64,000 bases of DNA from positions 62,502 to 126,501 of the forward strand of contig CAYMEN010000003.1 of the NCBI GenBank assembly GCA_964389325.1. Reading direction: 5' to 3'. Within the stretch, counting starts at the first letter, position 1, and each line of letters begins with the position of its first letter. The DNA is from an uncultured bacterium. GTDB lineage: Bacteria > Muiribacteriota > Ozemobacteria > Ozemobacterales > Ozemobacteraceae. Made by a program: the position numbers and the translations under genes. Positions 1,661 to 61,001 of this stretch are shown piece by piece. The notes beneath the pieces are model-generated. The model was given only the letters and a program-made list of their open reading frames with translations, did no database searches and was not told the DNA's origin.

Positions 1661-2237
1661 ACGATGTCTCCTTTGTGGTTATGAAATACGCTTCCGTATA
1701 CGATCAGGTGCCGCGTTGTCGAGTTGTCTCGCAGAGCGGCGATGGAAGCATGATAGCAACGGGCGTGCCACCTGCTGAAACCTCTGTGTGATGCGACATG
1801 TGAGCGACCGAAATGCTCCAGGATCTGATGAGCGTGCAGAAAATGCATGGATACCATGTGAAAATTGCGTGGCCTTGGATGCCGCCCGCGAGCGGAACTC
1901 GACGGGCTCTCGCAGTCACTGCCAATGAGCCCTGGAAAGCGAAAACCTTCCCTTGGCCCTGAGCTTGTCGAACCCTGTCCTGAGCCTGTCGCGGGGGGGT
2001 GAGAGCTATTCGTGTTTCGACAGGCTCAGCACGGACGGAACGCGAAACAGGTTTACCTGTGCGGGAGGCAACACGTGTGCTGCATCGTCGTGATCGTGCC
2101 GTTCGCAAAACATCGGAGAAAAGCCTGGGATGGGCATGTCGAGAACCTTTGGCTGCCATGGCATGATTTGTGCTGTGGGGAAAAACATGGTTATATGGGT
2201 TCGTCTTCGAATACCTACGGGAATCCAGGAGGTGCTG

Positions 2238-3638
2238 ATGTCTCGTCCCGATCGCCTGCTCGCCGCCATGTTCTGTCTGACCTTCGTATCGCTGCCCGGC
2301 TTTGCCGTCGAACCCCTTTCGATCGGCGAAGCCGTGAGAAAAGCCCTGGACCACAGCCCGGCTCTCGGCGCCGCACGGGAGGGAGAGACCGTGGCGCGCG
2401 AAAAGATCGGCGAAGCCCGGTCGATGCGCGGCCTGAAAGTGACGGCCGGCGTTTCCGACACGCGCCTCGACAGCCCGATGATGGCTTTCGGAGCCCGGCT
2501 CGACCAGGGCCGCATCTCGATGGCCGACTTCCAGCCCGACCGGCTGAACGATCCCGATGCGGTGAACAACCTCAAGATCGGTGCGCAGGTCGTCCTGCCG
2601 CTCCATCTCGGCGGCATGGATCGTCACGCGGAACGTGCCGCGCGGTTCGGCCTCGATGCGGCCGCGCAGGACACCGCGCACGCTTCAGAGGAAACGATCT
2701 TCCGCACGATCGACACGTATCTCGGGGTCGTGCTTGCCCGCGAGAGCCTCTCGGTGGCCGATAAGGCCTGCGAGATGTCGGCCGAAAGCTTGAAGAACGC
2801 GCAGGCCGCCGTCGAGGCCCAGCGCGCCGTCGAATCGGACCTTCTCCAGGCGAAGGTCCACCACTCGCAGAACCAGGAAACCAGCCTCCGGATGCAGAAC
2901 CAGTACCGGCTTGCCCTCGAGGGGCTCGCCACGGTGATGGGCGTCGCCTCAGCCTCGGATTACGAGTTAACCATGCCGTTGCTTCAGGAGGAATGCACCC
3001 CCTGCGGGGAAGAGCCCGCGCGGCTTCTGGATACCGCCCTTCGTCAGCGCCCCGATTATCTTGCCCTGCTGAAGCGCGCGGATGCCGTTTCGCAGAGCGA
3101 ACGCATGCACCGCGGCGCGGTCCGGCCCCATGTCGTGCTTGGGGCGGCTGCCGATCACAACCGCGACGGCTTCGGCGGCGATGGCCATGGCAACAGCATG
3201 GTGTTCGCGCGCGTCGACTGGAACATCGCCGACGGCGGAGAAGCGAGCCACAAGGCCGCGGGGGCGAAGGCCCAGTCACGCCAGCTCCGACTGGCGGCGC
3301 AGGCCCTGAGGGACGGGATCCATCTCCAGGTCCGCGAGGCCCTGACGGGCATCAACAACGCGCTCGAGCGGATCAAGGTCAGCCGGGAAGCCGTCGAGAA
3401 CAGCACCGAGTCCCTCCGCATCCTGCGCGACCGGTATACGGCTGGTCTGGCCATCATGAGCGACCTGCTCGGGGCCGAGGCCAGCCTCCTGTCGCACCGC
3501 ATGAATCATCTGAGAGCCCTGTATGACTACTCGATCAGCCGCGCGCGCCTGAAGATGGCCCTCGGCGATCTCACGCTCGAGCGGTGCGCCCTGCTCCAGG
3601 ACGAGGCAATCACCACGGAATACGTAAACCGCAGATGA
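2238..3638 (+). CDS. TolC-family outer membrane efflux protein (OMP component of tripartite RND system)
   Basis: Signal peptide MSRPDRLLAAMFCLTFVSLPGFA after a GGAGG RBS; two OEP-like repeats; coiled-coil-rich alpha-barrel-like sequence; immediately upstream of MFP and RND genes. Confidence 0.75.
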   Translation: MSRPDRLLAAMFCLTFVSLPGFAVEPLSIGEAVRKALDHSPALGAAREGETVAREKIGEARSMRGLKVTAGVSDTRLDSPMMAFGARLDQGRISMADFQPDRLNDPDAVNNLKIGAQVVLPLHLGGMDRHAERAARFGLDAAAQDTAHASEETIFRTIDTYLGVVLARESLSVADKACEMSAESLKNAQAAVEAQRAVESDLLQAKVHHSQNQETSLRMQNQYRLALEGLATVMGVASASDYELTMPLLQEECTPCGEEPARLLDTALRQRPDYLALLKRADAVSQSERMHRGAVRPHVVLGAAADHNRDGFGGDGHGNSMVFARVDWNIADGGEASHKAAGAKAQSRQLRLAAQALRDGIHLQVREALTGINNALERIKVSREAVENSTESLRILRDRYTAGLAIMSDLLGAEASLLSHRMNHLRALYDYSISRARLKMALGDLTLERCALLQDEAITTEYVNRR

Positions 3639-3750
3639 CGCTGATGAGGACGCGGATTGGCGCGGATGGCAGGAAAACAATATCGAATAGTTTAAATATT
3701 TATAAATACATGAACAGATGGTTCGATGCCATGAAACGGGAGAAATTTGT

Positions 3751-8136: not shown

Positions 8137-8307
8137 TTCCTCCGGGGAAACAACACGGGCGCGGGGCCGGATATTCAGGCCTCGCGCCGCTTTTTCGCCG
8201 GCGATATCTATGTTCCGGAAAGGAAACGACATCCGCAGATGGCGCAGATGACGCAGATATAATATGAATATTTATATATAAGCACCCGGATTCAATACGG
8301 TCTTGAA

Positions 8308-13704: not shown

Positions 13705-14703
13705 TCAGATGGCGATGTCCCGGAGCATGGCGGCCGCGTCCTCCGGCGGGGTGGGGTTGATGTAAAAGCCGGAACCCCATTCGAAGCCGGCGACGTTCGT
13801 CAGTTTGGGAATGATCTCGAGATGCCAGTGGTAGAAGTCGCGGTAAGACTCGGAGCACGGGGAGCTGTGGAGCACGAAGTTGAACGGAATCCCCGGGAGC
13901 AGGGCTTCCAGGCGCTTGAGCGCTCCCTGCAGCGTCGCCGCGAACGAGTGCACGTGTTCGTTGTCGATGTTCTCGAAAAACGGCTGGTGCGTCTTGGGAA
14001 TGATCTCGATCTCGAAGGGAAACCGAGAGGCGAAGGGGCAGAACGCCATGAAATGCTCGTCCTGAATGATGATCCGTGAGGACTGCTCGGTTTCCTGACG
14101 AAGTATGTCGCAGAATATACATCTATCGTGATAATGGAAATACTCCCGCGCGCCGTCGAGTTCCTCCTCGATGCGCTTCGGGATGATCGGAGTGGCGATG
14201 ATGTGCGAGTGGGCGTGGGAGAAGTTCGACACGCCCCGACCGCTGTTTTTCACGATCATCAGGTGCTTGAACCGGGGGTTCTTCTTGATCTCGAGCAGGC
14301 GCTGCTTGTACGCCCAGATGACTTCGCGAACCATATCTATTGGTATTGATTGCAGCGTCTGCGTGTGCTGCGGGGTTTCGACGAGCACCTCGTGGATGCC
14401 GATCGAGTTCATCGCGTCGAACATGCCGATGCCTTCCCGGCCGGCGTCGCCGGCGGGAACGAGGATTGGATCGCGGTCGGGGATGACGCGGACCCACCAG
14501 CCCTTCTCGTTCGCGGCCGTGCCGGCCTTGCGGAACGACATCGTCTCGGCGGGAGTCAGCCGCTCGTTGCCTTCGCAGAAGGGGCACTCGGCGGTGTCAT
14601 CGGGCGCCCCGGTCGGAACCGGATAATCGTGCGGCCGTTTCCCGCGTTCGGGGGAGATGATCACCCACTGCTTCAGGACAGGGTCTTTTCTCAGCTGCGG
14701 CAT
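13705..14703 (-). CDS. galactose-1-phosphate uridylyltransferase-like protein (class I GalT / HIT superfamily nucleotidyltransferase; could be ADP-glucose phosphorylase-like)
   Basis: CPFC zinc motif, HxHxx nucleotidyl-histidine motif SHAHSHIIATP, overall GalT-like length and organisation. Confidence 0.7.
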   Translation of the reverse strand: MPQLRKDPVLKQWVIISPERGKRPHDYPVPTGAPDDTAECPFCEGNERLTPAETMSFRKAGTAANEKGWWVRVIPDRDPILVPAGDAGREGIGMFDAMNSIGIHEVLVETPQHTQTLQSIPIDMVREVIWAYKQRLLEIKKNPRFKHLMIVKNSGRGVSNFSHAHSHIIATPIIPKRIEEELDGAREYFHYHDRCIFCDILRQETEQSSRIIIQDEHFMAFCPFASRFPFEIEIIPKTHQPFFENIDNEHVHSFAATLQGALKRLEALLPGIPFNFVLHSSPCSESYRDFYHWHLEIIPKLTNVAGFEWGSGFYINPTPPEDAAAMLRDIAI

Positions 14704-14706
14704 TGG

Positions 14707-15777
14707 CTACCTCGCACTCGTGCCTGATTTTACGGCGGGGGCATCGGCGGAGGCCGCCGGTTCGTCGGTGTGTTCCTCGTCGAGCGACGCCTGGATGAGA
14801 TACTTCGCCGCATCCTCGGGCGGAACGTGGTTCACGTAGAACCCCGAGCCCCATTCGAATCCTGCGACCTTCGACAGCCGGGGCATGATCTCGATATGCC
14901 AGTGGAAGTAGTCGGCGCAGTGCTCGTCGCACGGGGACGTATGGATGATGTAATTGAACGGCGGCTGGTCGAGCGTCTTGATGAGCCGCCGGAGGGTGCC
15001 GCTCATCATCTCGGCGAGGTTGTCCAGTTCGGCCTCTTCGATGTCGCCGAAGGATGCCTTGTGGTCCTTGGGGGCGATCCAGGTTTCGAACGGGAAGCGG
15101 GATGCGAAAGGCGCGAATGCGACGAAACTCTCGTTCTCATGGATGATCCGGTTGCCGGCGCTCAGTTCCTGGCGGATGATGTCGCAGAAGACGCAGCGTT
15201 CCTTGTAGTAGTAATACTGGCGGGCGCCTTCAACCTCTTCCATGACGCGCTTCGGGATGATCGGGGTCGCGATCAGCTGGGAGTGCGGGTGATCGAGGCT
15301 GGCCCCCGCGGCGGCGCCGGAGTTCTTGAACAGCAGGATGTAACGGAACCGCCTGTCGCGTTTGAGGTCGCGGTACCGGTCGGCGTAGGCGCTGACGATC
15401 TTGAAGACGTGCTGTTTCGAGTAGGCTTCGAACCCCTGATCGTGGATCGGTGTCTCGATGATGACCTCATGGGCCCCGACACCGTTCATCATGTCGTAGA
15501 GGCCGAGGCCGGTGCGGTCGAGGTCGCCCTCGATCTGGAGGGCGGGGTAGCGGTTCGGAACGACGCGTACCTGCCAGCCCTGCTGGTTCGGGAGGGTGTT
15601 CGGCTCCCGGTAGGACATCACTTCCGGGGGCGTCATCGACTCCTGGCCCGGGCAGAACGGGCATTTTCCGGTCTGTGCCTTCGGTTTTGCCGAAGGGAAG
15701 TCTTTCGGGCTCTTCGCCTTTTCGTGTACGATGATCACCCAGCGCTTGGTGACCGGATCCTTGCGGAGTTGCGGCAT
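14707..15777 (-). CDS. galactose-1-phosphate uridylyltransferase-like protein, tandem paralog
   Basis: CPFC motif and canonical HPHSQ motif; 3-nt spacing to downstream paralog; start taken at MPQLRKDPV (ATG 15777) rather than upstream in-frame ATG at 15840. Confidence 0.7.
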   Translation of the reverse strand: MPQLRKDPVTKRWVIIVHEKAKSPKDFPSAKPKAQTGKCPFCPGQESMTPPEVMSYREPNTLPNQQGWQVRVVPNRYPALQIEGDLDRTGLGLYDMMNGVGAHEVIIETPIHDQGFEAYSKQHVFKIVSAYADRYRDLKRDRRFRYILLFKNSGAAAGASLDHPHSQLIATPIIPKRVMEEVEGARQYYYYKERCVFCDIIRQELSAGNRIIHENESFVAFAPFASRFPFETWIAPKDHKASFGDIEEAELDNLAEMMSGTLRRLIKTLDQPPFNYIIHTSPCDEHCADYFHWHIEIMPRLSKVAGFEWGSGFYVNHVPPEDAAKYLIQASLDEEHTDEPAASADAPAVKSGTSAR

Positions 15778-15996
15778 CCTGACCTCCCGGGGTCCCCCAG
15801 ATTCATCGGGAATTATACTATGCCTCCCCGACAATCGCAACGGCCGGTAGCGGGGAATACACGAACTGGTGCCCCTCCGCGAAAATCGTTGACAAGGTGA
15901 CTGCGCTCGGTTACACTTGCACCGGTCGTGATCCGCGAGGTCACGCCGTGCATTTCATACATGAAACGATGGCGAAAAGGCAAAAAGAGGTAATCC

Positions 15997-16588: not shown

Positions 16589-16654
16589 GGCGCCGGATCC
16601 CCTCAGGGGTCCGGCGCCGTTTTCTTGTGCGCGCCCTGCAGGGCGCGGGTTTTT
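16589..16654 (+). terminator. two tandem hairpins with T-tracts downstream of the 15997-16563 gene
   Basis: GGCGCCGGATCCCC/GGGGTCCGGCGCC then TTTCTTG; perfect palindrome CGCGCCCTG/CAGGGCGCG followed by GGTTTTTCT. Confidence 0.5.
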
Positions 16655-16663
16655 CTCACGCAA

Positions 16664-16690
16664 GGAAAAGCCCCGCCTTTGGGGCGGGGC
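16664..16690 (-). terminator. rho-independent terminator for the minus-strand acidic-protein gene
   Basis: Stem GCCCCGCC/GGCGGGGC with 5-nt loop, followed on the minus strand by TTTTCC. Confidence 0.5.
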
Positions 16691-16734
16691 TTCTGGCATT
16701 ACCGGATGGGCCGGGCGGGGGGGGATCCGACGGA

Positions 16735-17097
16735 TTATTCCTCGTCGTCTTCCTCGTCTTCCTCGTCCTCATCGTCGAAGTCTTCTTCGTCTTCGTCGTC
16801 AAAATCTTCTTCTTCTTCGTCTTCGAAGTCTTCGTCTTCCTCGTCTTCTTCGTCGAACTCGTCTTCGTCGTCGAAGTCTTCTTCATCTTCGTCGAGGTCT
16901 TCTTCGTCTTCTTCGAGGTCTTCGTCTTCTTCGTCGTCGTCGAAGTCTTCTAAATCTTCTTCTTCTTCTTCTTCGTCTTCGAGGTCTTCTTCTTCGAGGT
17001 CTTCTTCTCCCTCGTCCTTCTCATCCTCGTCGACGTCTTCCCAGCGCTTCTTCGGAGACATCATCTCCTCTTCGATCAACCAGTCGTTCGTCGGCAT
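16735..17097 (-). CDS. hyper-acidic D/E-repeat protein (120 aa; non-repetitive N-terminus MPTNDWLIEEEMMSPKKRWEDV followed by about 90 residues of almost pure Asp/Glu with occasional Leu/Phe)
   Basis: AAAGGGGA RBS 8 nt upstream of the minus-strand ATG; own terminator hairpin downstream; the opposite-strand reading is a poly-Ser ORF without RBS. Confidence 0.5.
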   Translation of the reverse strand: MPTNDWLIEEEMMSPKKRWEDVDEDEKDEGEEDLEEEDLEDEEEEEEDLEDFDDDEEDEDLEEDEEDLDEDEEDFDDEDEFDEEDEEDEDFEDEEEEDFDDEDEEDFDDEDEEDEEDDEE

Positions 17098-17260
17098 GGC
17101 GAATATCCCCTTTCGTGCCTAGATGTTGAGTTATTGCGGATCGGGGGCAATAATGGCACAATGCCGGCGTCGTGTCAAGACAGAAAATAGTCAATATTGC
17201 ACATGCCGATGAAAACCGAGTTCAGCCAGTGCTGAAAACCTGCCGGGGTACCCGCCTTTC

Positions 17261-36037: not shown

Positions 36038-36508
36038 ATGACCACAGACAACATCAGGGAACGAACCTTCGTTCTTATCAAGCCTGACGGCATCCAGCGC
36101 GGCAAAGCGGGAGAGATTCTCTCCCGCTTTGAGTCTAAAGGGCTGAAAATCGTCGGCATGAAAATGGTCCGCATCACCGGCGAACAGGCCGAGCGCCAGT
36201 ACGCCTGCCACAAGGGAAAAGCGTTCTACGAGTCGCTCGTCGCTTTCATGCTTTCCGGGCCGTGCCTGGCCCTGGTGCTCGAAGGCCGCAACGCGATCGA
36301 TATCGTTCGCAAGCTGATGGGCGCGACCAACCCGATCGCGGCCGAACCCGGCACCATCCGCGGCGACATGGCCCTCGACACCAAGCATAACCTCGTCCAC
36401 GGCTCCGACTCGCAGGCCAGCGTCGACCTCGAGACGCCGATCTATTTCGCGCCGAACGAGCTTTTCGAATACGACCTCGCGACCAGGGACTGGTTGTATT
36501 ACACCTGA
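36038..36508 (+). CDS. ndk: nucleoside diphosphate kinase
   Basis: ERTFVLIKPDG..., active-site NLVHGSDS (catalytic His), GAAGAATG RBS. Confidence 0.95.
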   Translation: MTTDNIRERTFVLIKPDGIQRGKAGEILSRFESKGLKIVGMKMVRITGEQAERQYACHKGKAFYESLVAFMLSGPCLALVLEGRNAIDIVRKLMGATNPIAAEPGTIRGDMALDTKHNLVHGSDSQASVDLETPIYFAPNELFEYDLATRDWLYYT

Positions 36509-36699
36509 ATCCGACCTGACCATCTGATCCACGACGCGGGAGGGGCTGACCGGCCTCTCCCGCTTTCTCTCCTCCGGGCGCTTCACGAAACGCCCGAACG
36601 ATACGATTGTTTCCTCTGTGTCTGGTATGTTGAAAAAACGTATATTCACCGCGGAGGCGCCGAGGCGCTGAGAAGAATAGAATCGTTCATCTTTTTGAC

Positions 36700-36772
36700 T
36701 CGTTTCTTTCTCTGCGTCTCTGCGACTCTGCGGTTCAATCTTCGTATCTCCGTGACTCTGTGGTGCGTTGTT
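36700..36772. repeat. intergenic repeat element, copy A (shares an exact 17-mer at 36704-36720 and an exact 13-mer at 36759-36771 with copy B at 60099-60175, in reverse-complement orientation)
   Basis: TTCTTTCTCTGCGTCTC at 36704-36720 is the reverse complement of 60117-60133; CTGTGGTGCGTTG at 36759-36771 is the reverse complement of 60099-60111. Confidence 0.55.
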
Positions 36773-36861
36773 TTGTCAACATTCCGGGCACGAGCGGAAA
36801 CTCATGCGCTCGCGCTGGTTGGGCTCTTGCATTGATGGCGGGGATCAGGCATCATGCGGAC

Positions 36862-38466
36862 ATGCGCCTTTCCCGCCTCTTGCTCGGATTGCTCCTCGTC
36901 GTTCTGTGCGCCGCTCTTGGCGCATGGGGCGCGCTCTCGTCGGTCGCGGGAAACGAGTATGTCGTGCGCTGGGGGGCAATGATGGCCGCCCAGAGCCTCG
37001 ATGCCGACATGCAGCTCGGAAGGGTGACCGGAACCGTGCTGGAAGCCCTGCGCATCGACGGCGTCCAGGGCATGGTGCGCCGCTCGCGGACGGGATTCGC
37101 GGCGGGGCCGGTCGAAATCTCGTTCAACCTGCGTGAAGCCGCTCACCGGGGCCTCGTCATCGGAACGCTGAACTGTCCCTGGCTGAAATTCTGGGGCGGC
37201 GTGCCGGTGCCGCCCTGGCTGGGCGGTTTGCCGGAGCTGCCTCCGCCGACGTGCCAGGCCGACCTGAAACTTCCGGTCGGCATCGACCGCATCCGCCTCG
37301 ACCGCATCGACTGGATGCCGACGGCATCCGGGCCGGTCGAGGTCACGGTCGCCTCGTTCGCGATCGATGCGGCATCACGGACGAACGGTCTCCAGCCCGT
37401 CTCGTTCTCGCTGTCGGTTCGGTTCAAAGGCGCCGAGTTCGCCGCCGCGGCTTTCGAGGGACACCTGGCCTCGACCAGGGCGTCCCTGTCTGGAAAAATA
37501 GCAGGAAATATATTTAGCTTTCCCGTCGACGCCGGCCTGAAGGTTTCGGTGAAGCGGGACGGCGTCTTCGCCGAGGGGACACTGGCCGAAACCCGGATCG
37601 ACCTGACGGTGCTGTCGAAATGGCTCAGTCCCCTCTGGCGGGACACCGTGCCGCTGTTCGTGAACGGAGGGATCACCGGGGGAGGAACCTGGGTGGCCCA
37701 GCCGAAGCTCGGCTTCGCGGGCCGGTTCCAGGGGCGGTTCGATCGCGTCGTGTTCGTGCTGACCGGGTTCAACCTGCCGCTCGCCGAACTGGACGCCCCT
37801 TGGAAATGCTTCGACGGCAAGCTGCGCGTCGAGCATGGAGACAGCCGTTTCATCGGCTTTCCAGCCTCCTTCAGCGGGACCGTCGGGCTCGCCGCCGGTC
37901 TGAAGCCTGACTGGAGCATCGAAGCCCGGGTCGCCGATCTTCCCCTGGCCGATCTCGTCGCAACCCTGCCGTGGGCGGTGCGATACGGGTACGGTGTTCC
38001 CGATCTGGCCGGCCTGGCAAGCATGACCGCCCGGTTCGACGGAACCGCGCCCGGCATCCTCGTCAACGCGACGGCCCTGGTGGCCCGGCAAACCGGATCG
38101 GCCGCGACATCGAGCATTTCGATCCGCTACCGTCACGCGGCCGGGCAGCCGGACCGCTGGGACCTCGAATCCTGCTGGACGGCTGAAACCGACATGCCGA
38201 AAGGTTTTGCCGGACTTCCCGTGCGCGTGGCCCCTTCGGGAGAACCGTTGCGGCCCCCGTTCGAATTCCGTTTCGAGGGATTCGGGACGTATCTCGACAA
38301 GCTCGATACGCGGCTGGGCATTTTCTGGAAAGACGGCGGTGCCTGGCAGGCAACGGGGCTCCTCGAAGGCCACGCCTGGGACGGCCCCGTCGTCGGTCAG
38401 GACGGCCAGCCGGTGGCGATCCCTCAGGATCTGGGCCTGATCGATTTTCTGCTGCCGGGAACGTAA
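36862..38466 (+). CDS. hypothetical secreted/membrane-anchored protein (about 535 aa); start uncertain (alternatives 36760, 36835)
   Basis: N-terminal signal-like MRLSRLLLGLLLVVLCAALGAWGA; coding GC3 bias; no recognisable catalytic motif. Confidence 0.4.
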   Translation: MRLSRLLLGLLLVVLCAALGAWGALSSVAGNEYVVRWGAMMAAQSLDADMQLGRVTGTVLEALRIDGVQGMVRRSRTGFAAGPVEISFNLREAAHRGLVIGTLNCPWLKFWGGVPVPPWLGGLPELPPPTCQADLKLPVGIDRIRLDRIDWMPTASGPVEVTVASFAIDAASRTNGLQPVSFSLSVRFKGAEFAAAAFEGHLASTRASLSGKIAGNIFSFPVDAGLKVSVKRDGVFAEGTLAETRIDLTVLSKWLSPLWRDTVPLFVNGGITGGGTWVAQPKLGFAGRFQGRFDRVVFVLTGFNLPLAELDAPWKCFDGKLRVEHGDSRFIGFPASFSGTVGLAAGLKPDWSIEARVADLPLADLVATLPWAVRYGYGVPDLAGLASMTARFDGTAPGILVNATALVARQTGSAATSSISIRYRHAAGQPDRWDLESCWTAETDMPKGFAGLPVRVAPSGEPLRPPFEFRFEGFGTYLDKLDTRLGIFWKDGGAWQATGLLEGHAWDGPVVGQDGQPVAIPQDLGLIDFLLPGT

Positions 38467-42434: not shown

Positions 42435-42463
42435 GTAGGGGCGGGTTTGAAACCCGCCCCTAC
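42435..42463. promoter_or_regulatory. GC-rich perfect palindrome GTAGGGGCGGGTTT g AAACCCGCCCCTAC in the divergent intergenic region between the SLH-protein gene and the V-ATPase operon
   Basis: 14-nt arms, read directly; position between divergent starts suggests operator or structured leader rather than terminator. Confidence 0.4.
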
Positions 42464-57411: not shown

Positions 57412-58725
57412 ATGATAAAGTATACAAATACGGCATGGGGACTCGCTCGCGCCGCGCTTCTCGGAGGAATCCTGCTCGTTTCCGCCGCCGACGCCCGGGC
57501 GGCCAATGACGGCCCGCAGTTCGACGGGTTTTCCGCCAAGGTGTCGGGTGATATCTACGGCCAGCCCCGGGTCATCGAGGACATGGACGGGGACGGGAAA
57601 CAGGACCTGATCTTCGGCGCCACGGACGGCAAGGTACATGTCTACTCGTCGACCGGCAAGGAGATCATCCGGCCGCCGAACTGGCCGAAACAGACGGGAG
57701 CGCCGATCCTTTCCGACGTGTCGGTCGCCGACCTCGACAACGACGGGAGCTCCGAGGTCATCGTCAGCTCCCTGAACGGGAAGGTTTACTGCATGGACCG
57801 CCGGGGCGTCCAGAAATGGGAAGTGAACACCCGCGGCACGATCCGTCTCTCGTCCCCCGAGGTCGCCGACGTCGACGGGGCGGGCAACATGTCCGTCTTC
57901 ATCGGATCGAAAGCGGGCACCGTGAGCCGGATCGACAAGGACGGGCGGCTGATCTGGGAGGTCCCGATGTCGACCTCCGTCTCGTCGCGCGTCGTCGCTG
58001 CCGACATCAACGGCGACGGCACCAAGGAGCTCGTCGCCAAGGACGACAACGGGAAGGTGACGATCCTGAACATGCGCGGCTCTGTGGAGAGCGGCTGGCC
58101 CCAGTCGACGGTCCCGAACCTGACCTGGCCCTTCGAAGTCGGTGCCGGCGACGTCAACGGCGACGGCGTCAAGGAGATCTTCACGACGACGCCTGAAAAA
58201 AAGTTTTTACTATGGAACAGGGACGGCAGCCTCCGGACGCAGTTCGGCCTTTCCGACGCGTCGCATTCGGCCCCTCGTCTTGCGGACCTGAACGGGGACG
58301 GCCGCGACGAGTTCGTCATCGGCCAGGCGGACGGGGTGGTGATGGTCTGCGATCGTGATGGCAAGCCGCTCCCGGGATGGCCCTTCAAGACGAGGCATTC
58401 GGTCTATCACACGCCGCAGGTGATCGACGTCGACGGCGATGGCCGGCTCGACGTGGTGTTCACGGCCTGGAACCCCGAAGGCGTCGGCAAACAGGCGGGC
58501 TACGTGATGGCGCTGAGCCGCGACGGGAGCCCGCTTCACGGATACCCGAAATACATCGGGAAATCCATCGCCCCGCTGACGTTTGCCGATCTCGACGACG
58601 ACGGGTATCTCGAGATGATCGCCGCGGGCGGCATCAACTACACCGACGACCAGCTCCACGTCTTCCCGACCGGCGCCCGCGTCCAGATACGGCTGGCGAT
58701 TCTCGGCAGCGAGGTGTCGTTCTGA
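57412..58725 (+). CDS. secreted FG-GAP/integrin-alpha-like beta-propeller protein with repeated D-x-D/N-G-D-G calcium-binding loops
   Basis: Signal peptide; eight D.DGDG-type loops (DMDGDGKQD, DLDNDGSSE, DVDGAGNMS, DINGDGTKE, DVNGDGVKE, DLNGDGRDE, DVDGDGRLD, DLDDDGYLE) at about 45-55-aa intervals; GGAGG RBS. Confidence 0.65.
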   Translation: MIKYTNTAWGLARAALLGGILLVSAADARAANDGPQFDGFSAKVSGDIYGQPRVIEDMDGDGKQDLIFGATDGKVHVYSSTGKEIIRPPNWPKQTGAPILSDVSVADLDNDGSSEVIVSSLNGKVYCMDRRGVQKWEVNTRGTIRLSSPEVADVDGAGNMSVFIGSKAGTVSRIDKDGRLIWEVPMSTSVSSRVVAADINGDGTKELVAKDDNGKVTILNMRGSVESGWPQSTVPNLTWPFEVGAGDVNGDGVKEIFTTTPEKKFLLWNRDGSLRTQFGLSDASHSAPRLADLNGDGRDEFVIGQADGVVMVCDRDGKPLPGWPFKTRHSVYHTPQVIDVDGDGRLDVVFTAWNPEGVGKQAGYVMALSRDGSPLHGYPKYIGKSIAPLTFADLDDDGYLEMIAAGGINYTDDQLHVFPTGARVQIRLAILGSEVSF

Positions 58726-60083
58726 TGCGGTTCGCCCTCTTCCCGGCGTGGCACAGGGCTTTTCTGGCAGCCATCTGCGCGATTTCGATATGCGCCGGGG
58801 GCGCATGCGCGCAGGAGGATGACGACCTCCGCGAGTTCCTGACCAGGGGGCAGGTCTGCTACCAGAAACGCGACCTGGCGGGGGCCGCGCTCGAATTCGA
58901 AAACGTCCTGCTCATCGATCCGTCGAACGTCGAGGCGTCGATCTGGCTGGCCCAGATCTACGCCGATCAGAAGAACATGTTCAAAGCCCGGCAGATGCTC
59001 CAGCAGGCGAAGCGGATCATGCCGACGCATGCCCGCGTGGTCGCCCTCGAAAACCTCTTTGGCGACGGCAAGCCCCGGGTCACGACGAAGGAGACCGATC
59101 TCGTGATGCACGAGACGCTGACCCTGCTCGGCTCGGGAACGAACCTGCGGCCGTACGGCCTCGTCGTGCCCGAACAGAAAGTCCGTGCCGCCGGTGTCCA
59201 GTCCTCGACGATAGCTGCGTTCGAGGACGTGGAGATCGCGATCGAGCCCTCCCTTGGAACGGGGCCGACGAGCGTTCCGGCCGGTATCGATGCGTTCGCG
59301 AAGGAGGAGGGGCCGCTCGCCCCGGTGTTCGAGGCGCGGACGGTCCAGGGCCTCGCGAAAGCTCTCGACGCCTATTTCGAGATCGTCGGGAAAGACAAGA
59401 CCCTCGTGGAACAGGATGACAAGGGATTGCTCAACGAGGGGATCACCTTCTACGAACCAAAACTCCGCGCGAATGCCAGCGACACCGAGGCCGTCTTCTA
59501 TTACGGCATGATCCAGTTCTACAACGGTGCGGTCGAAGAAGCGTTCAAACTCCTCGAACCTCTGCGTGAAAGCGAAACGCCCTACGGTGACCGGCTTCAG
59601 GTCGTCTGGAACGAGATCGACAAACGCAGGCGCGAGGAAGAAGCCCGTCGCGAAGCCCTCAGACGCGAGGAAGAAGCCCGCGAAGCTGCGCGTATCGCCG
59701 CTGCCGAACAGGCCGCCGCCGCCTCCGCCGCGATAGCCGCCGCCGCCGGAAGCGCGCCCACCGGTTCCGTCGCCTCCGCCTCGAGCCCGGCCGACGCCCT
59801 GCATACCGAAGGCTACGAACTGTACAAGAAGGGCCAGGTCGACGCCGCGATCGAAAAGTTCAACACCGCCATCAGTCGCAATCCGAACGAGCCGAATTAC
59901 CATTACCACCTCGGCCTCGCTCTCACCGACAAGGGGCTCGGGGGCCAGTATGACGCCTTCGACCGGGCGATCGAGGCGTTCAACCGCGTTCTGCGTCTCG
60001 CCCCGCCCGGCGAAAAACTCGCGAAAGACGCCGAAGCCATGGTCCGCGACATCACCGCCGCCAAAAACACCCTCAAACGCTGA
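58725..60083 (+). CDS. secreted TPR-repeat protein with central Arg/Glu-rich charged helix and Ala-rich linker
   Basis: Signal peptide; TPR-like helices at both ends; REEEARREALRREEEAREAARIAAAEQAAAASAAIAAAAG segment; TGATG overlap with upstream gene. Confidence 0.55.
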   Translation: MRFALFPAWHRAFLAAICAISICAGGACAQEDDDLREFLTRGQVCYQKRDLAGAALEFENVLLIDPSNVEASIWLAQIYADQKNMFKARQMLQQAKRIMPTHARVVALENLFGDGKPRVTTKETDLVMHETLTLLGSGTNLRPYGLVVPEQKVRAAGVQSSTIAAFEDVEIAIEPSLGTGPTSVPAGIDAFAKEEGPLAPVFEARTVQGLAKALDAYFEIVGKDKTLVEQDDKGLLNEGITFYEPKLRANASDTEAVFYYGMIQFYNGAVEEAFKLLEPLRESETPYGDRLQVVWNEIDKRRREEEARREALRREEEAREAARIAAAEQAAAASAAIAAAAGSAPTGSVASASSPADALHTEGYELYKKGQVDAAIEKFNTAISRNPNEPNYHYHLGLALTDKGLGGQYDAFDRAIEAFNRVLRLAPPGEKLAKDAEAMVRDITAAKNTLKR

Positions 60084-60098
60084 TCTCCACGGAACCTG

Positions 60099-60175
60099 CA
60101 ACGCACCACAGGCACGGAGACGCAGAGAAAGAAATTCTGTTCGAACTCTGTGTCTCTGTGCCTGGTGGTGCGTTG
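60099..60175. repeat. intergenic repeat element copy B: about 29-bp imperfect inverted-repeat arms with 18-nt loop (probable terminator hairpin for the 55.8-60.1 kb operon), sharing 17-mer and 13-mer with copy A
   Basis: Arms CAACGCACCACAGGCACGGAGACGCAGAG / CTCTGTGTCTCTGTGCCTGGTGGTGCGTTG; shared k-mers with 36700-36772. Confidence 0.55.
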
Positions 60176-60257
60176 TATCATTCAACGGCCAAAAAGATCG
60201 GTTGCGGGCGGGGAATTGTGATATACTTCCCGCGTTTGCGACAAGGAGAGAGTCGAG

Positions 60258-61001
60258 ATGGGTGTGACGACGAAACACAACCGCGGCCAGGAACTTTCCC
60301 CCGACCTCGATGTCGGTGAGAACGGCGTTGCCGTCGAAGTGCCGGTGACCCGCCCCTTCGAAGGGTACACCTATATCCGCAAGGAGTGGGTCGATCAGGA
60401 AGACGGGATCGAGAAGGTCACCTTCAACATGACGCTCGGGCCGGTCAATCTTCCCGCCGACTGGAGCCGCACCCAGACATTCGTCATGATGCCGGAATGG
60501 GGCACGTCCCCCCTCCGCCGCACCTGGATCGTGCGACTGCCGACGCATCTCGAAGGGCATGATCAGTATCTCTTTCACTATTTTTTCCAAACCTACTATG
60601 CGAACGGCGAGGAACGCGTCAGCAGCATGTTCGCCCAGTTGATCCAGCCGCATGAGATCGAGTATATCGATTACGGCGGCGACCTGGTCAACGTACGGCT
60701 CCATTGGAGCGTCGGCGACTGGTCCTATGCGCAGGATACCGAGCTCGAGGCCGACGGCATCGAGTGGGGAAGCGAATTTTCCGTCAGCAGTGCGCCCTAC
60801 CGCGCCAAAGACCGTCTGTATCAGAACGGCCGCATTCTCGTGATGCGCCGCCTGCCTTTCCCACGAAGGTTTCACGGCCTGATCTGGGCCCCGAAGGGCG
60901 CCGAGGTCCGTTTCTGCTTCCAACTCGTGCGACACCGTCCCGACGGCCAGGATCTGCTGTGGGACAACAATTTCGGCAAAAATTACTCTCTGACCATCTA
61001 A
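60258..61001 (+). CDS. hypothetical protein with CBM20/21-like (starch/glycogen-binding-type) C-terminal motif
   Basis: C-terminal LLWDNNFGKNYSLTI resembles the conserved WDNN.G.NY end of CBM21/CBM20 domains; AAGGAGAG RBS. Confidence 0.4.
   Translation: MGVTTKHNRGQELSPDLDVGENGVAVEVPVTRPFEGYTYIRKEWVDQEDGIEKVTFNMTLGPVNLPADWSRTQTFVMMPEWGTSPLRRTWIVRLPTHLEGHDQYLFHYFFQTYYANGEERVSSMFAQLIQPHEIEYIDYGGDLVNVRLHWSVGDWSYAQDTELEADGIEWGSEFSVSSAPYRAKDRLYQNGRILVMRRLPFPRRFHGLIWAPKGAEVRFCFQLVRHRPDGQDLLWDNNFGKNYSLTI

Follow-up and report, generated by a model that had tools for sequence, protein, structure and literature searches.

The window analysed here, a stretch of 64,000 nucleotides from a genome of Candidatus Ozemobacteraceae (Riflebacteria), carries two intergenic sites, A and B, that are built from a common repeat unit (Table 1). 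Site A lies in the spacer behind ndk. Site B follows the TPR gene (58725-60083, stop codon TGA at 60081-60083), which is the last gene of an FG-GAP/TPR operon, and its hairpin begins 14-16 nt past that stop codon. Each site is followed on the same strand by a gene, starting at 36862 about 90 nt downstream of site A and at 60258 about 80 nt downstream of site B. With the canonical terminator of ndk before them and a promoter-like block after them, the repeats of site A occupy the gap between terminator and promoter. This block, TTGCAT-17 nt-CATCAT, is nearly invariant across five orthologous spacers, and the consensus promoter scan did not call it. Together with the ATG at 36862 (36827-36864) its sequence suggests a promoter that would give a leaderless mRNA of a 534-aa function-unknown protein, whose homologues assign the window to Candidatus Ozemobacteraceae. 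Site B similarly lies upstream of a conserved extended -10-like block, TGaTATACT (60219-60227), which precedes the 60258 gene. An exact-protein look-up of the 247-aa neighbour returned no record.

Table 1. Features at and around the two repeat sites, in coordinates of the window.
Feature	Position	Strand	Sequence or composition	Remarks
ndk	36038-36508			followed by its own terminator
Terminator of ndk	36536-36563	+		canonical intrinsic terminator; upstream of site A repeats
A0	36608-36632	+	TGTTTCCTCTGTGTCTGGTATGTTG	degenerate outer-left unit; pairs with A3 in predicted outer helix; conserved in the 86% relative L001
Ax	36647-36682	-	reverse complement CTCAGCGC CTCGGCGC CTCCGCGG TG	diverged inverted unit; nhmmer E = 0.028
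A1	36703-36739	+	TTTCTTT head, octamers TCTCTGCG TCTCTGCG ACTCTGCG, GTTCAAT tail	contains the 17-mer; E = 7.9e-7
A2	36740-36770	+	two octamers and GTGGTGCGTTG tail	contains the 13-mer; head-to-tail with A1; E = 1.4e-7
A3	36777-36800	-	CAACATTCCGGGCACGAGCGGAAA	degenerate inverted outer-right unit; pairs with A0; conserved in L001, L009 and L008
Promoter-like block	36827-36855	+	TTGCAT-17 nt-CATCAT	downstream of site A repeats; stops 6 nt before ATG 36862
Hairpin B	60097-60177	+		30-31 bp, one bulge, apical region of 18 nt at 60128-60145; RNA and ssDNA folding
B1	60099-60134	-	reverse complement TTTCTTTCTCTGCGTCTCCGTGCCTGTGGTGCGTTG	left arm of hairpin B; E = 9.1e-6
B2	60140-60175	+	TTCGAACTCTGTGTCTCTGTGCCTGGTGGTGCGTTG	right arm of hairpin B; E = 1e-6

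The two sites were connected through a pair of exact matches. The 17-mer TTCTTTCTCTGCGTCTC at 36704-36720 recurs as its reverse complement at 60117-60133, and the 13-mer CTGTGGTGCGTTG at 36758-36770 does so at 60099-60111. Both had been picked out in an earlier, sequence-only reading of the window and both are real; the 17-mer had been placed correctly, and the 13-mer one base off, at 36759-36771. The accompanying argument that a chance 13-mer pair is very unlikely did not hold, as 286 pairs of 13-mers in the window are reverse complements of each other, compared with about 82 in shuffles, and 17-mer reverse-complement pairs arise about once per shuffle of the window. Given that pairs of either length occur in shuffles, the significance of the match rests on the collinearity of the blocks, on a unit profile, on a degenerate pattern and on further copies. 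Both blocks are collinear at site A and site B. A search of the window with the unit profile (nhmmer) recovers four units at E = 1e-7 to 9e-6 and a fifth at E = 0.028, and the window has three matches to a 21-23-nt degenerate pattern, against none in 100 shuffles. The description of a two-copy element has been replaced: site B consists of two inverted units, site A of five, and 20 further copies are present in related genomes.

The repeat unit is about 36 nt long, as in TTTCTTTCTCTGCGTCTCCGTGCCTGTGGTGCGTTG. Its T-rich head is followed by two or three CTCYGYG-N octamers in tandem and these by a GTGGTGCGTTG tail. The GTGGTG of the tail extends as CGTTG in the Ozemobacteraceae lineage and as AAA in most soil members. 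The unit strand is almost without A and the opposite strand almost without T. All Y positions of CTCYGYG represent CpG/TpG alternation, or CpG/CpA on the other arm. Because the choice of Y tends to be common within an array, four flavours can be distinguished, namely CTCCGCG, CTCCGTG, CTCTGCG and CTCTGTG. This sharing among the octamers of one array, together with the two identical octamers with which A1 opens, would fit octamer duplication or slippage. Units are found alone, head-to-tail or as inverted pairs. The unit is not self-complementary and is not an imperfect palindrome of 20-40 nt; on their own, units are no more prone to fold than shuffled sequence (z = -1.1, 0.0 and +0.2). Inverted pairs fold strongly and yield a hairpin of 25-31 bp as ssDNA or RNA.

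In hairpin B the inverted units B1 and B2 have their heads inward and their tails outward. The fold agrees with that described in the sequence-only reading, and reaches -62.1 kcal/mol as RNA (z = -9.2, with 0 of 200 shuffles as good) and -32 kcal/mol as ssDNA. It includes two G.U pairs, on the + strand only. In site A the order of units is a mosaic, + - + + -. Copy A had been taken to carry the same end segments as copy B with extra sequence between them; the end segments are indeed present, but the two blocks belong to two adjacent direct units, A1 and A2, and the hairpin partner of A1 at 36647-36682 had been missed. Ax forms the left arm and A1 the right arm of an inner hairpin at 36648-36735, for which dG is -46.4 kcal/mol (+ strand) or -38.5 kcal/mol (- strand) and the ssDNA fold has z = -6.6. 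For site A as a whole (36600-36800) the fold reaches z = -7.1. A T-loop-like GGTTCAATC in A1 was considered as a possible signature and was rejected, being absent as a family feature.

Both sites belong to a much larger set. A strict pattern corresponding to the 3' part of the unit, run over a genome collection, returned 30 loci, 20 of them in four Ozemobacteraceae/Riflebacteria MAGs. The typical form in this lineage reads CACCACAGAG-N-CACAGAG-N-CACAGAG, loop, CTCTGTG-N-CTCTGTG-N-CTCTGTGGTG and then CGTTG. True-looking members also occur in Solibacteraceae and Thermoanaerobaculia (Acidobacteria) MAGs and in a Chromatiales MAG, while the other matches to the strict pattern look like chance. The earlier proposal to count copies genome-wide and to ask whether they are intergenic was therefore borne out on both points by the copies in the four related MAGs and by their location. 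Across 322 kb of Ozemobacteraceae DNA, 87% of it coding, 64 of 70 arrays are intergenic, as are all 37 that have at least three octamers, a bias with p about 1e-34 or smaller. In 136 kb of loci that had been picked for one copy there are 13 more sites, and the window has two sites in 64 kb, which gives a density of roughly one site per 10-30 kb.

Beyond this lineage, the 26-nt core CTCYGYGNCTCYGYGNCTCYGYGGTG is found at no fewer than 120 metagenome loci (at least 120), mostly from soil and peat as judged from sample accessions, and in 114 stretches of IMG/VR viral contigs, several of which have 4-6 copies. Where viral contigs were mapped, the copies sit at gene boundaries; nothing in the GenBank phage collection matched the repeat family. 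Plasmid BLAST located a full hairpin in Bacteroides ovatus (NZ_CP081918.1, 96277-96351; L281 1501-1575), with a 9-nt period (CCTCYGYG-N) and a position between gmd and the GDP-L-fucose synthase gene, and, on a plasmid of Anabaena cylindrica, a solo array whose tail is GTGGTTCGTTA. Among the matches listed, 59 of 138 soil arrays are accompanied by an inverted partner no more than 200 nt away and 79 of 138 appear solo. Copies are not accompanied by a recurrent neighbour gene: an all-against-all BLAST of 96 downstream ORFs produced only three clusters of two, apparently orthologous pairs; an apparent MADY... start common to two soil loci had prompted this comparison. An Rfam search at gathering score, covering the window and 19 family-rich loci, gave 0 matches, and three Rfam E-value scans gave only sub-threshold miRNA-precursor hairpin models. 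None of the 15- and 17-nt diagnostic strings of the family occurs in the searchable literature, where no relevant paper was found.

Comparison of orthologous spacers provides a picture of rapid turnover. The ndk spacer of the 81% relative (L007) is 148 nt long, with a plain terminator and no repeats, and that of the 85% relative (L008) retains only a short piece, apparently A0'-A2'-A3'. A0, A2 and A3 are all kept in the 86-88% relatives (L001 and L009), A2 being present as a diverged orthologous copy in L001, L009 and L008. In L001 and L009 a different insert between A0 and A2, about 215 nt of CATCTGCG-type octamers, replaces the Ax-A1 hairpin segment of the window. Two different inserts at one unit boundary in sister lineages argue for a hot spot beside existing units. 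At the TPR spacer, the outer ends of hairpin B persist in the 94% relative (L040), where they enclose about 230 nt made up of CTTCGTG octamers and a GC palindrome headed by GTAG; in the 86% relative (L042) the hairpin is degenerate, and the 69% relative (L045) lacks it. As orthologous spacers exist without the element, neither neighbouring gene needs the repeat. The repeats turn over fast between related genomes, and the copies within one genome are nearly identical. The contigs L002 and L009 stop within the orthologous repeat region.

The main arrays cluster and nest with sister arrays of the forms CATCTGCG...GCGGAT and CTTCGTG...GTGGTGAAA and with a GTAG-GGGCGGGTTTSAAACCCGCCC-CTAC palindrome, an arrangement reminiscent of BIMEs; mosaic clusters are seen at L015, L025, L028 and L040. 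A mosaic module of about 110 nt recurs at L015 (about 30-250, DAOOQQ010000005.1), L029 and L040 (5600-5700). Its order is a GTAG/GC palindrome, ATATAT-GGTTGTTA, CTTCGTG octamers ending GTGGTGAAAT and CTCYGYG octamers ending GTGGTGCGTTG; it is in tandem in L015 and nested within the hairpin B orthologue in L040. Related elements are also present elsewhere in the window. At 42435-42463, a divergent intergenic region contains a palindrome of classical REP-like type that is headed by GTAG, GTAGGGGCGGGTTTGAAACCCGCCCCTAC, and near-identical copies of it, including the 3' flank CTACAGACGATTT, occur in the Ozemobacteraceae loci L028, L013, L017 and L020, where they often adjoin octamer arrays. Solo sister-octamer arrays CCGCAGATG GCGCAGATG ACGCAGAT (reverse complement CATCTGCG-N) are found at 8229-8260 and 3627-3670, one in a convergent spacer and the other overlapping the stop codon of the 2130-3638 ORF; their family is the one that supplies the alternative insert at the site A orthologue in L001. 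Two further repetitive regions of the window are of a different nature. Dense direct repeats with 9/15-nt spacing (16704-17048, 19 overlapping copies) lie within the 16625-17122 ORF and resemble a low-complexity coding repeat. The segments 13733-14217 and 14807-15291 share 72-75% identity at a spacing of 1074 nt and point to a tandem pair of paralogues on the - strand, the genes at 13705-14703 and 14707-15840.

Our results are probably best explained by both sites being members of a dispersed, non-coding REP/BIME-like repeat family. Copies would be made or homogenised at the DNA level. The most plausible route of transposition would be an enzyme that works on the hairpin in the way RAYT-type HUH/Y1 transposases work on REPs, and gene conversion and slippage of the 8-nt octamer may be alternative or accompanying routes of copying. 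New material would land preferentially beside or inside existing units, and the flanking genes would not be regulated by the repeats. The sequence-only reading had proposed a REP/MITE-like family; the REP-like part of this stands, whereas likeness to MITEs is loose, since no target-site duplication is visible in the flanks of B (..AACCTG / TATCAT..) and the loops, 8-99 nt long, are unrelated among the 13 hairpins examined. With interiors unrelated between copies, only the arms are repeated. The missing duplication at B also counts against the REP/BIME-like explanation, as do units without the self-palindromy of classical REPs and without a clear GTAG/CGTC tag. A search for the H-U-H...Y-x-x-N-P motif in about 2 Mb of flanking DNA met no HUH/Y1 (RAYT/IS200-like) ORF; this is a crude test, and the lack of a match is not evidence of absence. 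Nor was a tyrosine transposase seen near any copy in the approximately 2 Mb of flanking DNA fetched. The spread of the 26-nt core across Acidobacteria, Bacteroides, cyanobacteria, a Chromatiales MAG and viral contigs is furthermore unlike that of vertically inherited REPINs, and could mean selection by a conserved host factor or function.

A rival explanation would be an RNA-level job for which the hairpins are mainly kept, be it termination, 3'-end protection or an RNase III site separating operon segments, with the family looking repetitive because the job constrains its sequence. The position of B speaks for this, as the sole strong hairpin between the operon end and the next promoter and so close behind the stop codon, and many Ozemobacteraceae copies likewise lie 6-40 nt past a stop codon and are followed by T-rich tails. 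The copies at gene boundaries in the viral contigs examined and the copy between gmd and the GDP-L-fucose synthase gene in B. ovatus point the same way. In addition, for six of six clear co-directional hairpins in Ozemobacteraceae the sense strand gives the more stable fold, a hint of some RNA-level selection in this lineage that weighs against the REP/BIME-like explanation. This bias was not reproduced among 33 co-directional soil and viral hairpins (sense 17 versus antisense 12, p = 0.46), and G.U versus A.C mismatches per hairpin are not overdispersed (134 versus 116); a wider sample with neither strand preference nor overdispersion fits a DNA-level element. Both arms carry mostly T or C at the N positions of their octamers, and these positions match between arms in 33 of 105 hairpins against about 19 expected. 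Being mostly unmatched, they indicate that the heptamer sequence is conserved more than pairing, for which covariation support is weak at most. Site A, moreover, stands after the canonical terminator that ndk already has and before the next promoter. The canonical intrinsic terminator scan called none at hairpin B, whose tail TATCATTC has 4 T in 8 bases, and the usual family consensus (soil arrays among the matches listed) is flanked TTT...AAA, extending the stem, the opposite of the A...TTT flanks of a terminator. Together with the many arrays that have no inverted partner within 200 nt and the orthologous spacers that do without the element, this makes an RNA-level purpose rather unlikely as the main reason for the hairpins. 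Hairpin B probably forms at the 3' end of the FG-GAP/TPR operon transcript, where it may, like REPs, serve as a 3' barrier through mRNA-end protection or inefficient termination; such a role would be a side effect and not the reason why sites A and B have a common sequence.

Sequence conservation that exceeds pairing could also reflect an octamer array acting as the binding platform of a conserved sequence-specific DNA- or RNA-binding host factor, with the hairpin secondary. CTCYGYG and its spacer bases are conserved across phyla although complementarity of the arms is not strictly kept, solo arrays are common, and the strand composition, nearly A-free on one side and T-free on the other, would suit such a factor. 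We consider this improbable, as no candidate factor is known, the period of 8 nt does not fit the helical repeat of DNA, orthologous sites can do without copies and no gene family recurs beside them. A reading of the individual hairpins as small-RNA genes, or as members of a structured ncRNA family, is very unlikely: the predicted structures are very stable, but Rfam gives no match at gathering score for the window or the 19 family-rich loci, loops are unrelated, covariation is at most weak and the scans found no promoter-like site associated with the hairpins. The earlier suggestion of a shared cis-element, taken as one that co-regulates the 36862 and 60258 genes, has in its favour the position of both sites upstream of a same-strand gene, and is now scarcely credible. 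The promoter-like blocks, conserved in closer orthologues, lie downstream of the repeats, which are therefore outside those transcripts. Relatives at 69-81% identity have no repeats at these positions, closer ones have degenerate copies or different inserts, and other copies of the family stand beside unrelated genes and in convergent spacers. Several known kinds of element were also considered and rejected. A CRISPR array does not agree with units that are adjacent or inverted with 0-45 nt between them, the core sites of integron attC sites do not fit, the motifs required for CsrA/GGA sponges and for SD/anti-SD mimicry are lost when Y = T, and likeness to dif or Chi is superficial.

Returning to the REP/BIME-like family as the preferred explanation, the repeats appear to be neutral for gene function in the window and to mark fast-evolving intergenic hot spots, and they should not be annotated as regulators of neighbouring genes. 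Metagenomes from soil, peat and digesters are very rich in this apparently unnamed family, as are viral contigs, yet it is absent from Rfam and the searchable literature. It can break assemblies, as at the ends of contigs L002 and L009, and inflate ORF calls, and automated tools may detect it as MITEs. On a wider scale, the two sites might tentatively be assigned to a pan-bacterial class of intergenic elements with the core (CTCYGYG-N)2-3-GTGGTG or its 9-nt-period form CCTCYGYG-N. Conservation of sequence over pairing across phyla would imply a common trans-acting partner, which, if the class is real, would be either an enzyme dedicated to mobilising it or a host factor that binds nucleic acid and is itself conserved. 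Should a dedicated enzyme or binding protein exist, the REP/RAYT paradigm would be extended beyond GTAG/CGTC-tagged palindromes and beyond Proteobacteria. The copies in the gut bacterium B. ovatus and in Anabaena provide cultivable systems for functional work.

Among known systems, the DUS of Neisseria and the USS of Haemophilus resemble the octamer family as short motifs spread genome-wide that often form hairpins after genes. Each DUS or USS is a single, species-specific 9-12-mer that is often found within genes as well, whereas the family described here is a triple octamer array, absent from coding DNA in nearly all cases and common to several phyla. The closer parallel is with the REP/BIME elements of Enterobacteria and the RAYT-associated REPINs of Pseudomonas, whose properties are taken from PMC3733652 and PMC3337134. 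Like the octamer family, these are short, high-copy and extragenic, mostly downstream of genes. A copy of these may stand alone; two may be joined head-to-tail, or inverted so that the pair makes one long hairpin; and larger groups form mosaic clusters whose members alternate in orientation. The two partners of a dimer often belong to different subtypes, and related strains differ in their sets of copies. High copy number in extragenic DNA, inverted doublets that make one long hairpin and clusters of alternating orientation are thus all found in the octamer family. The differences lie in a non-palindromic unit with arms made of tandem octamers, in the lack of a clear GTAG/CGTC tag (the tail ..CTGTGGTGCGTTG contains GTGG, but inside the paired arm) and in the RAYT gene, for which the crude motif search of about 2 Mb of flanks gave no candidate. 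The octamer core also spans several phyla and viral contigs, unlike REPIN-RAYT systems, which 10.1101/2022.05.22.493013 describes as mostly vertically inherited within lineages. MITEs such as the Correia/NEMIS elements of Neisseria and the vMITEs share with the octamer family a small, palindromic, intergenic form with inverted arms and a presence in both hosts and viral contigs; the octamer family differs from them in having no evident target-site duplication, no conserved interior and no known parent insertion sequence. Two described groups are of note here. In Di Nocera et al. (2013, PMC3733652), TIR repeat families are tied to TIRYT tyrosine transposases, including a sharply defined Acidobacteria group, and appear as moderately abundant non-REP inverted repeats in dimers or clusters; Acidobacteria also carry the octamer family. 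In PMC11602168, vMITEs are reported in phages of Acidobacteriae UBA7540 and are most numerous in phages of Acidobacteriae. Compared by description, the octamer family may correspond to the non-REP TIR families of Acidobacteria (PMC3733652) or to the vMITEs of Acidobacteriae phages (PMC11602168).
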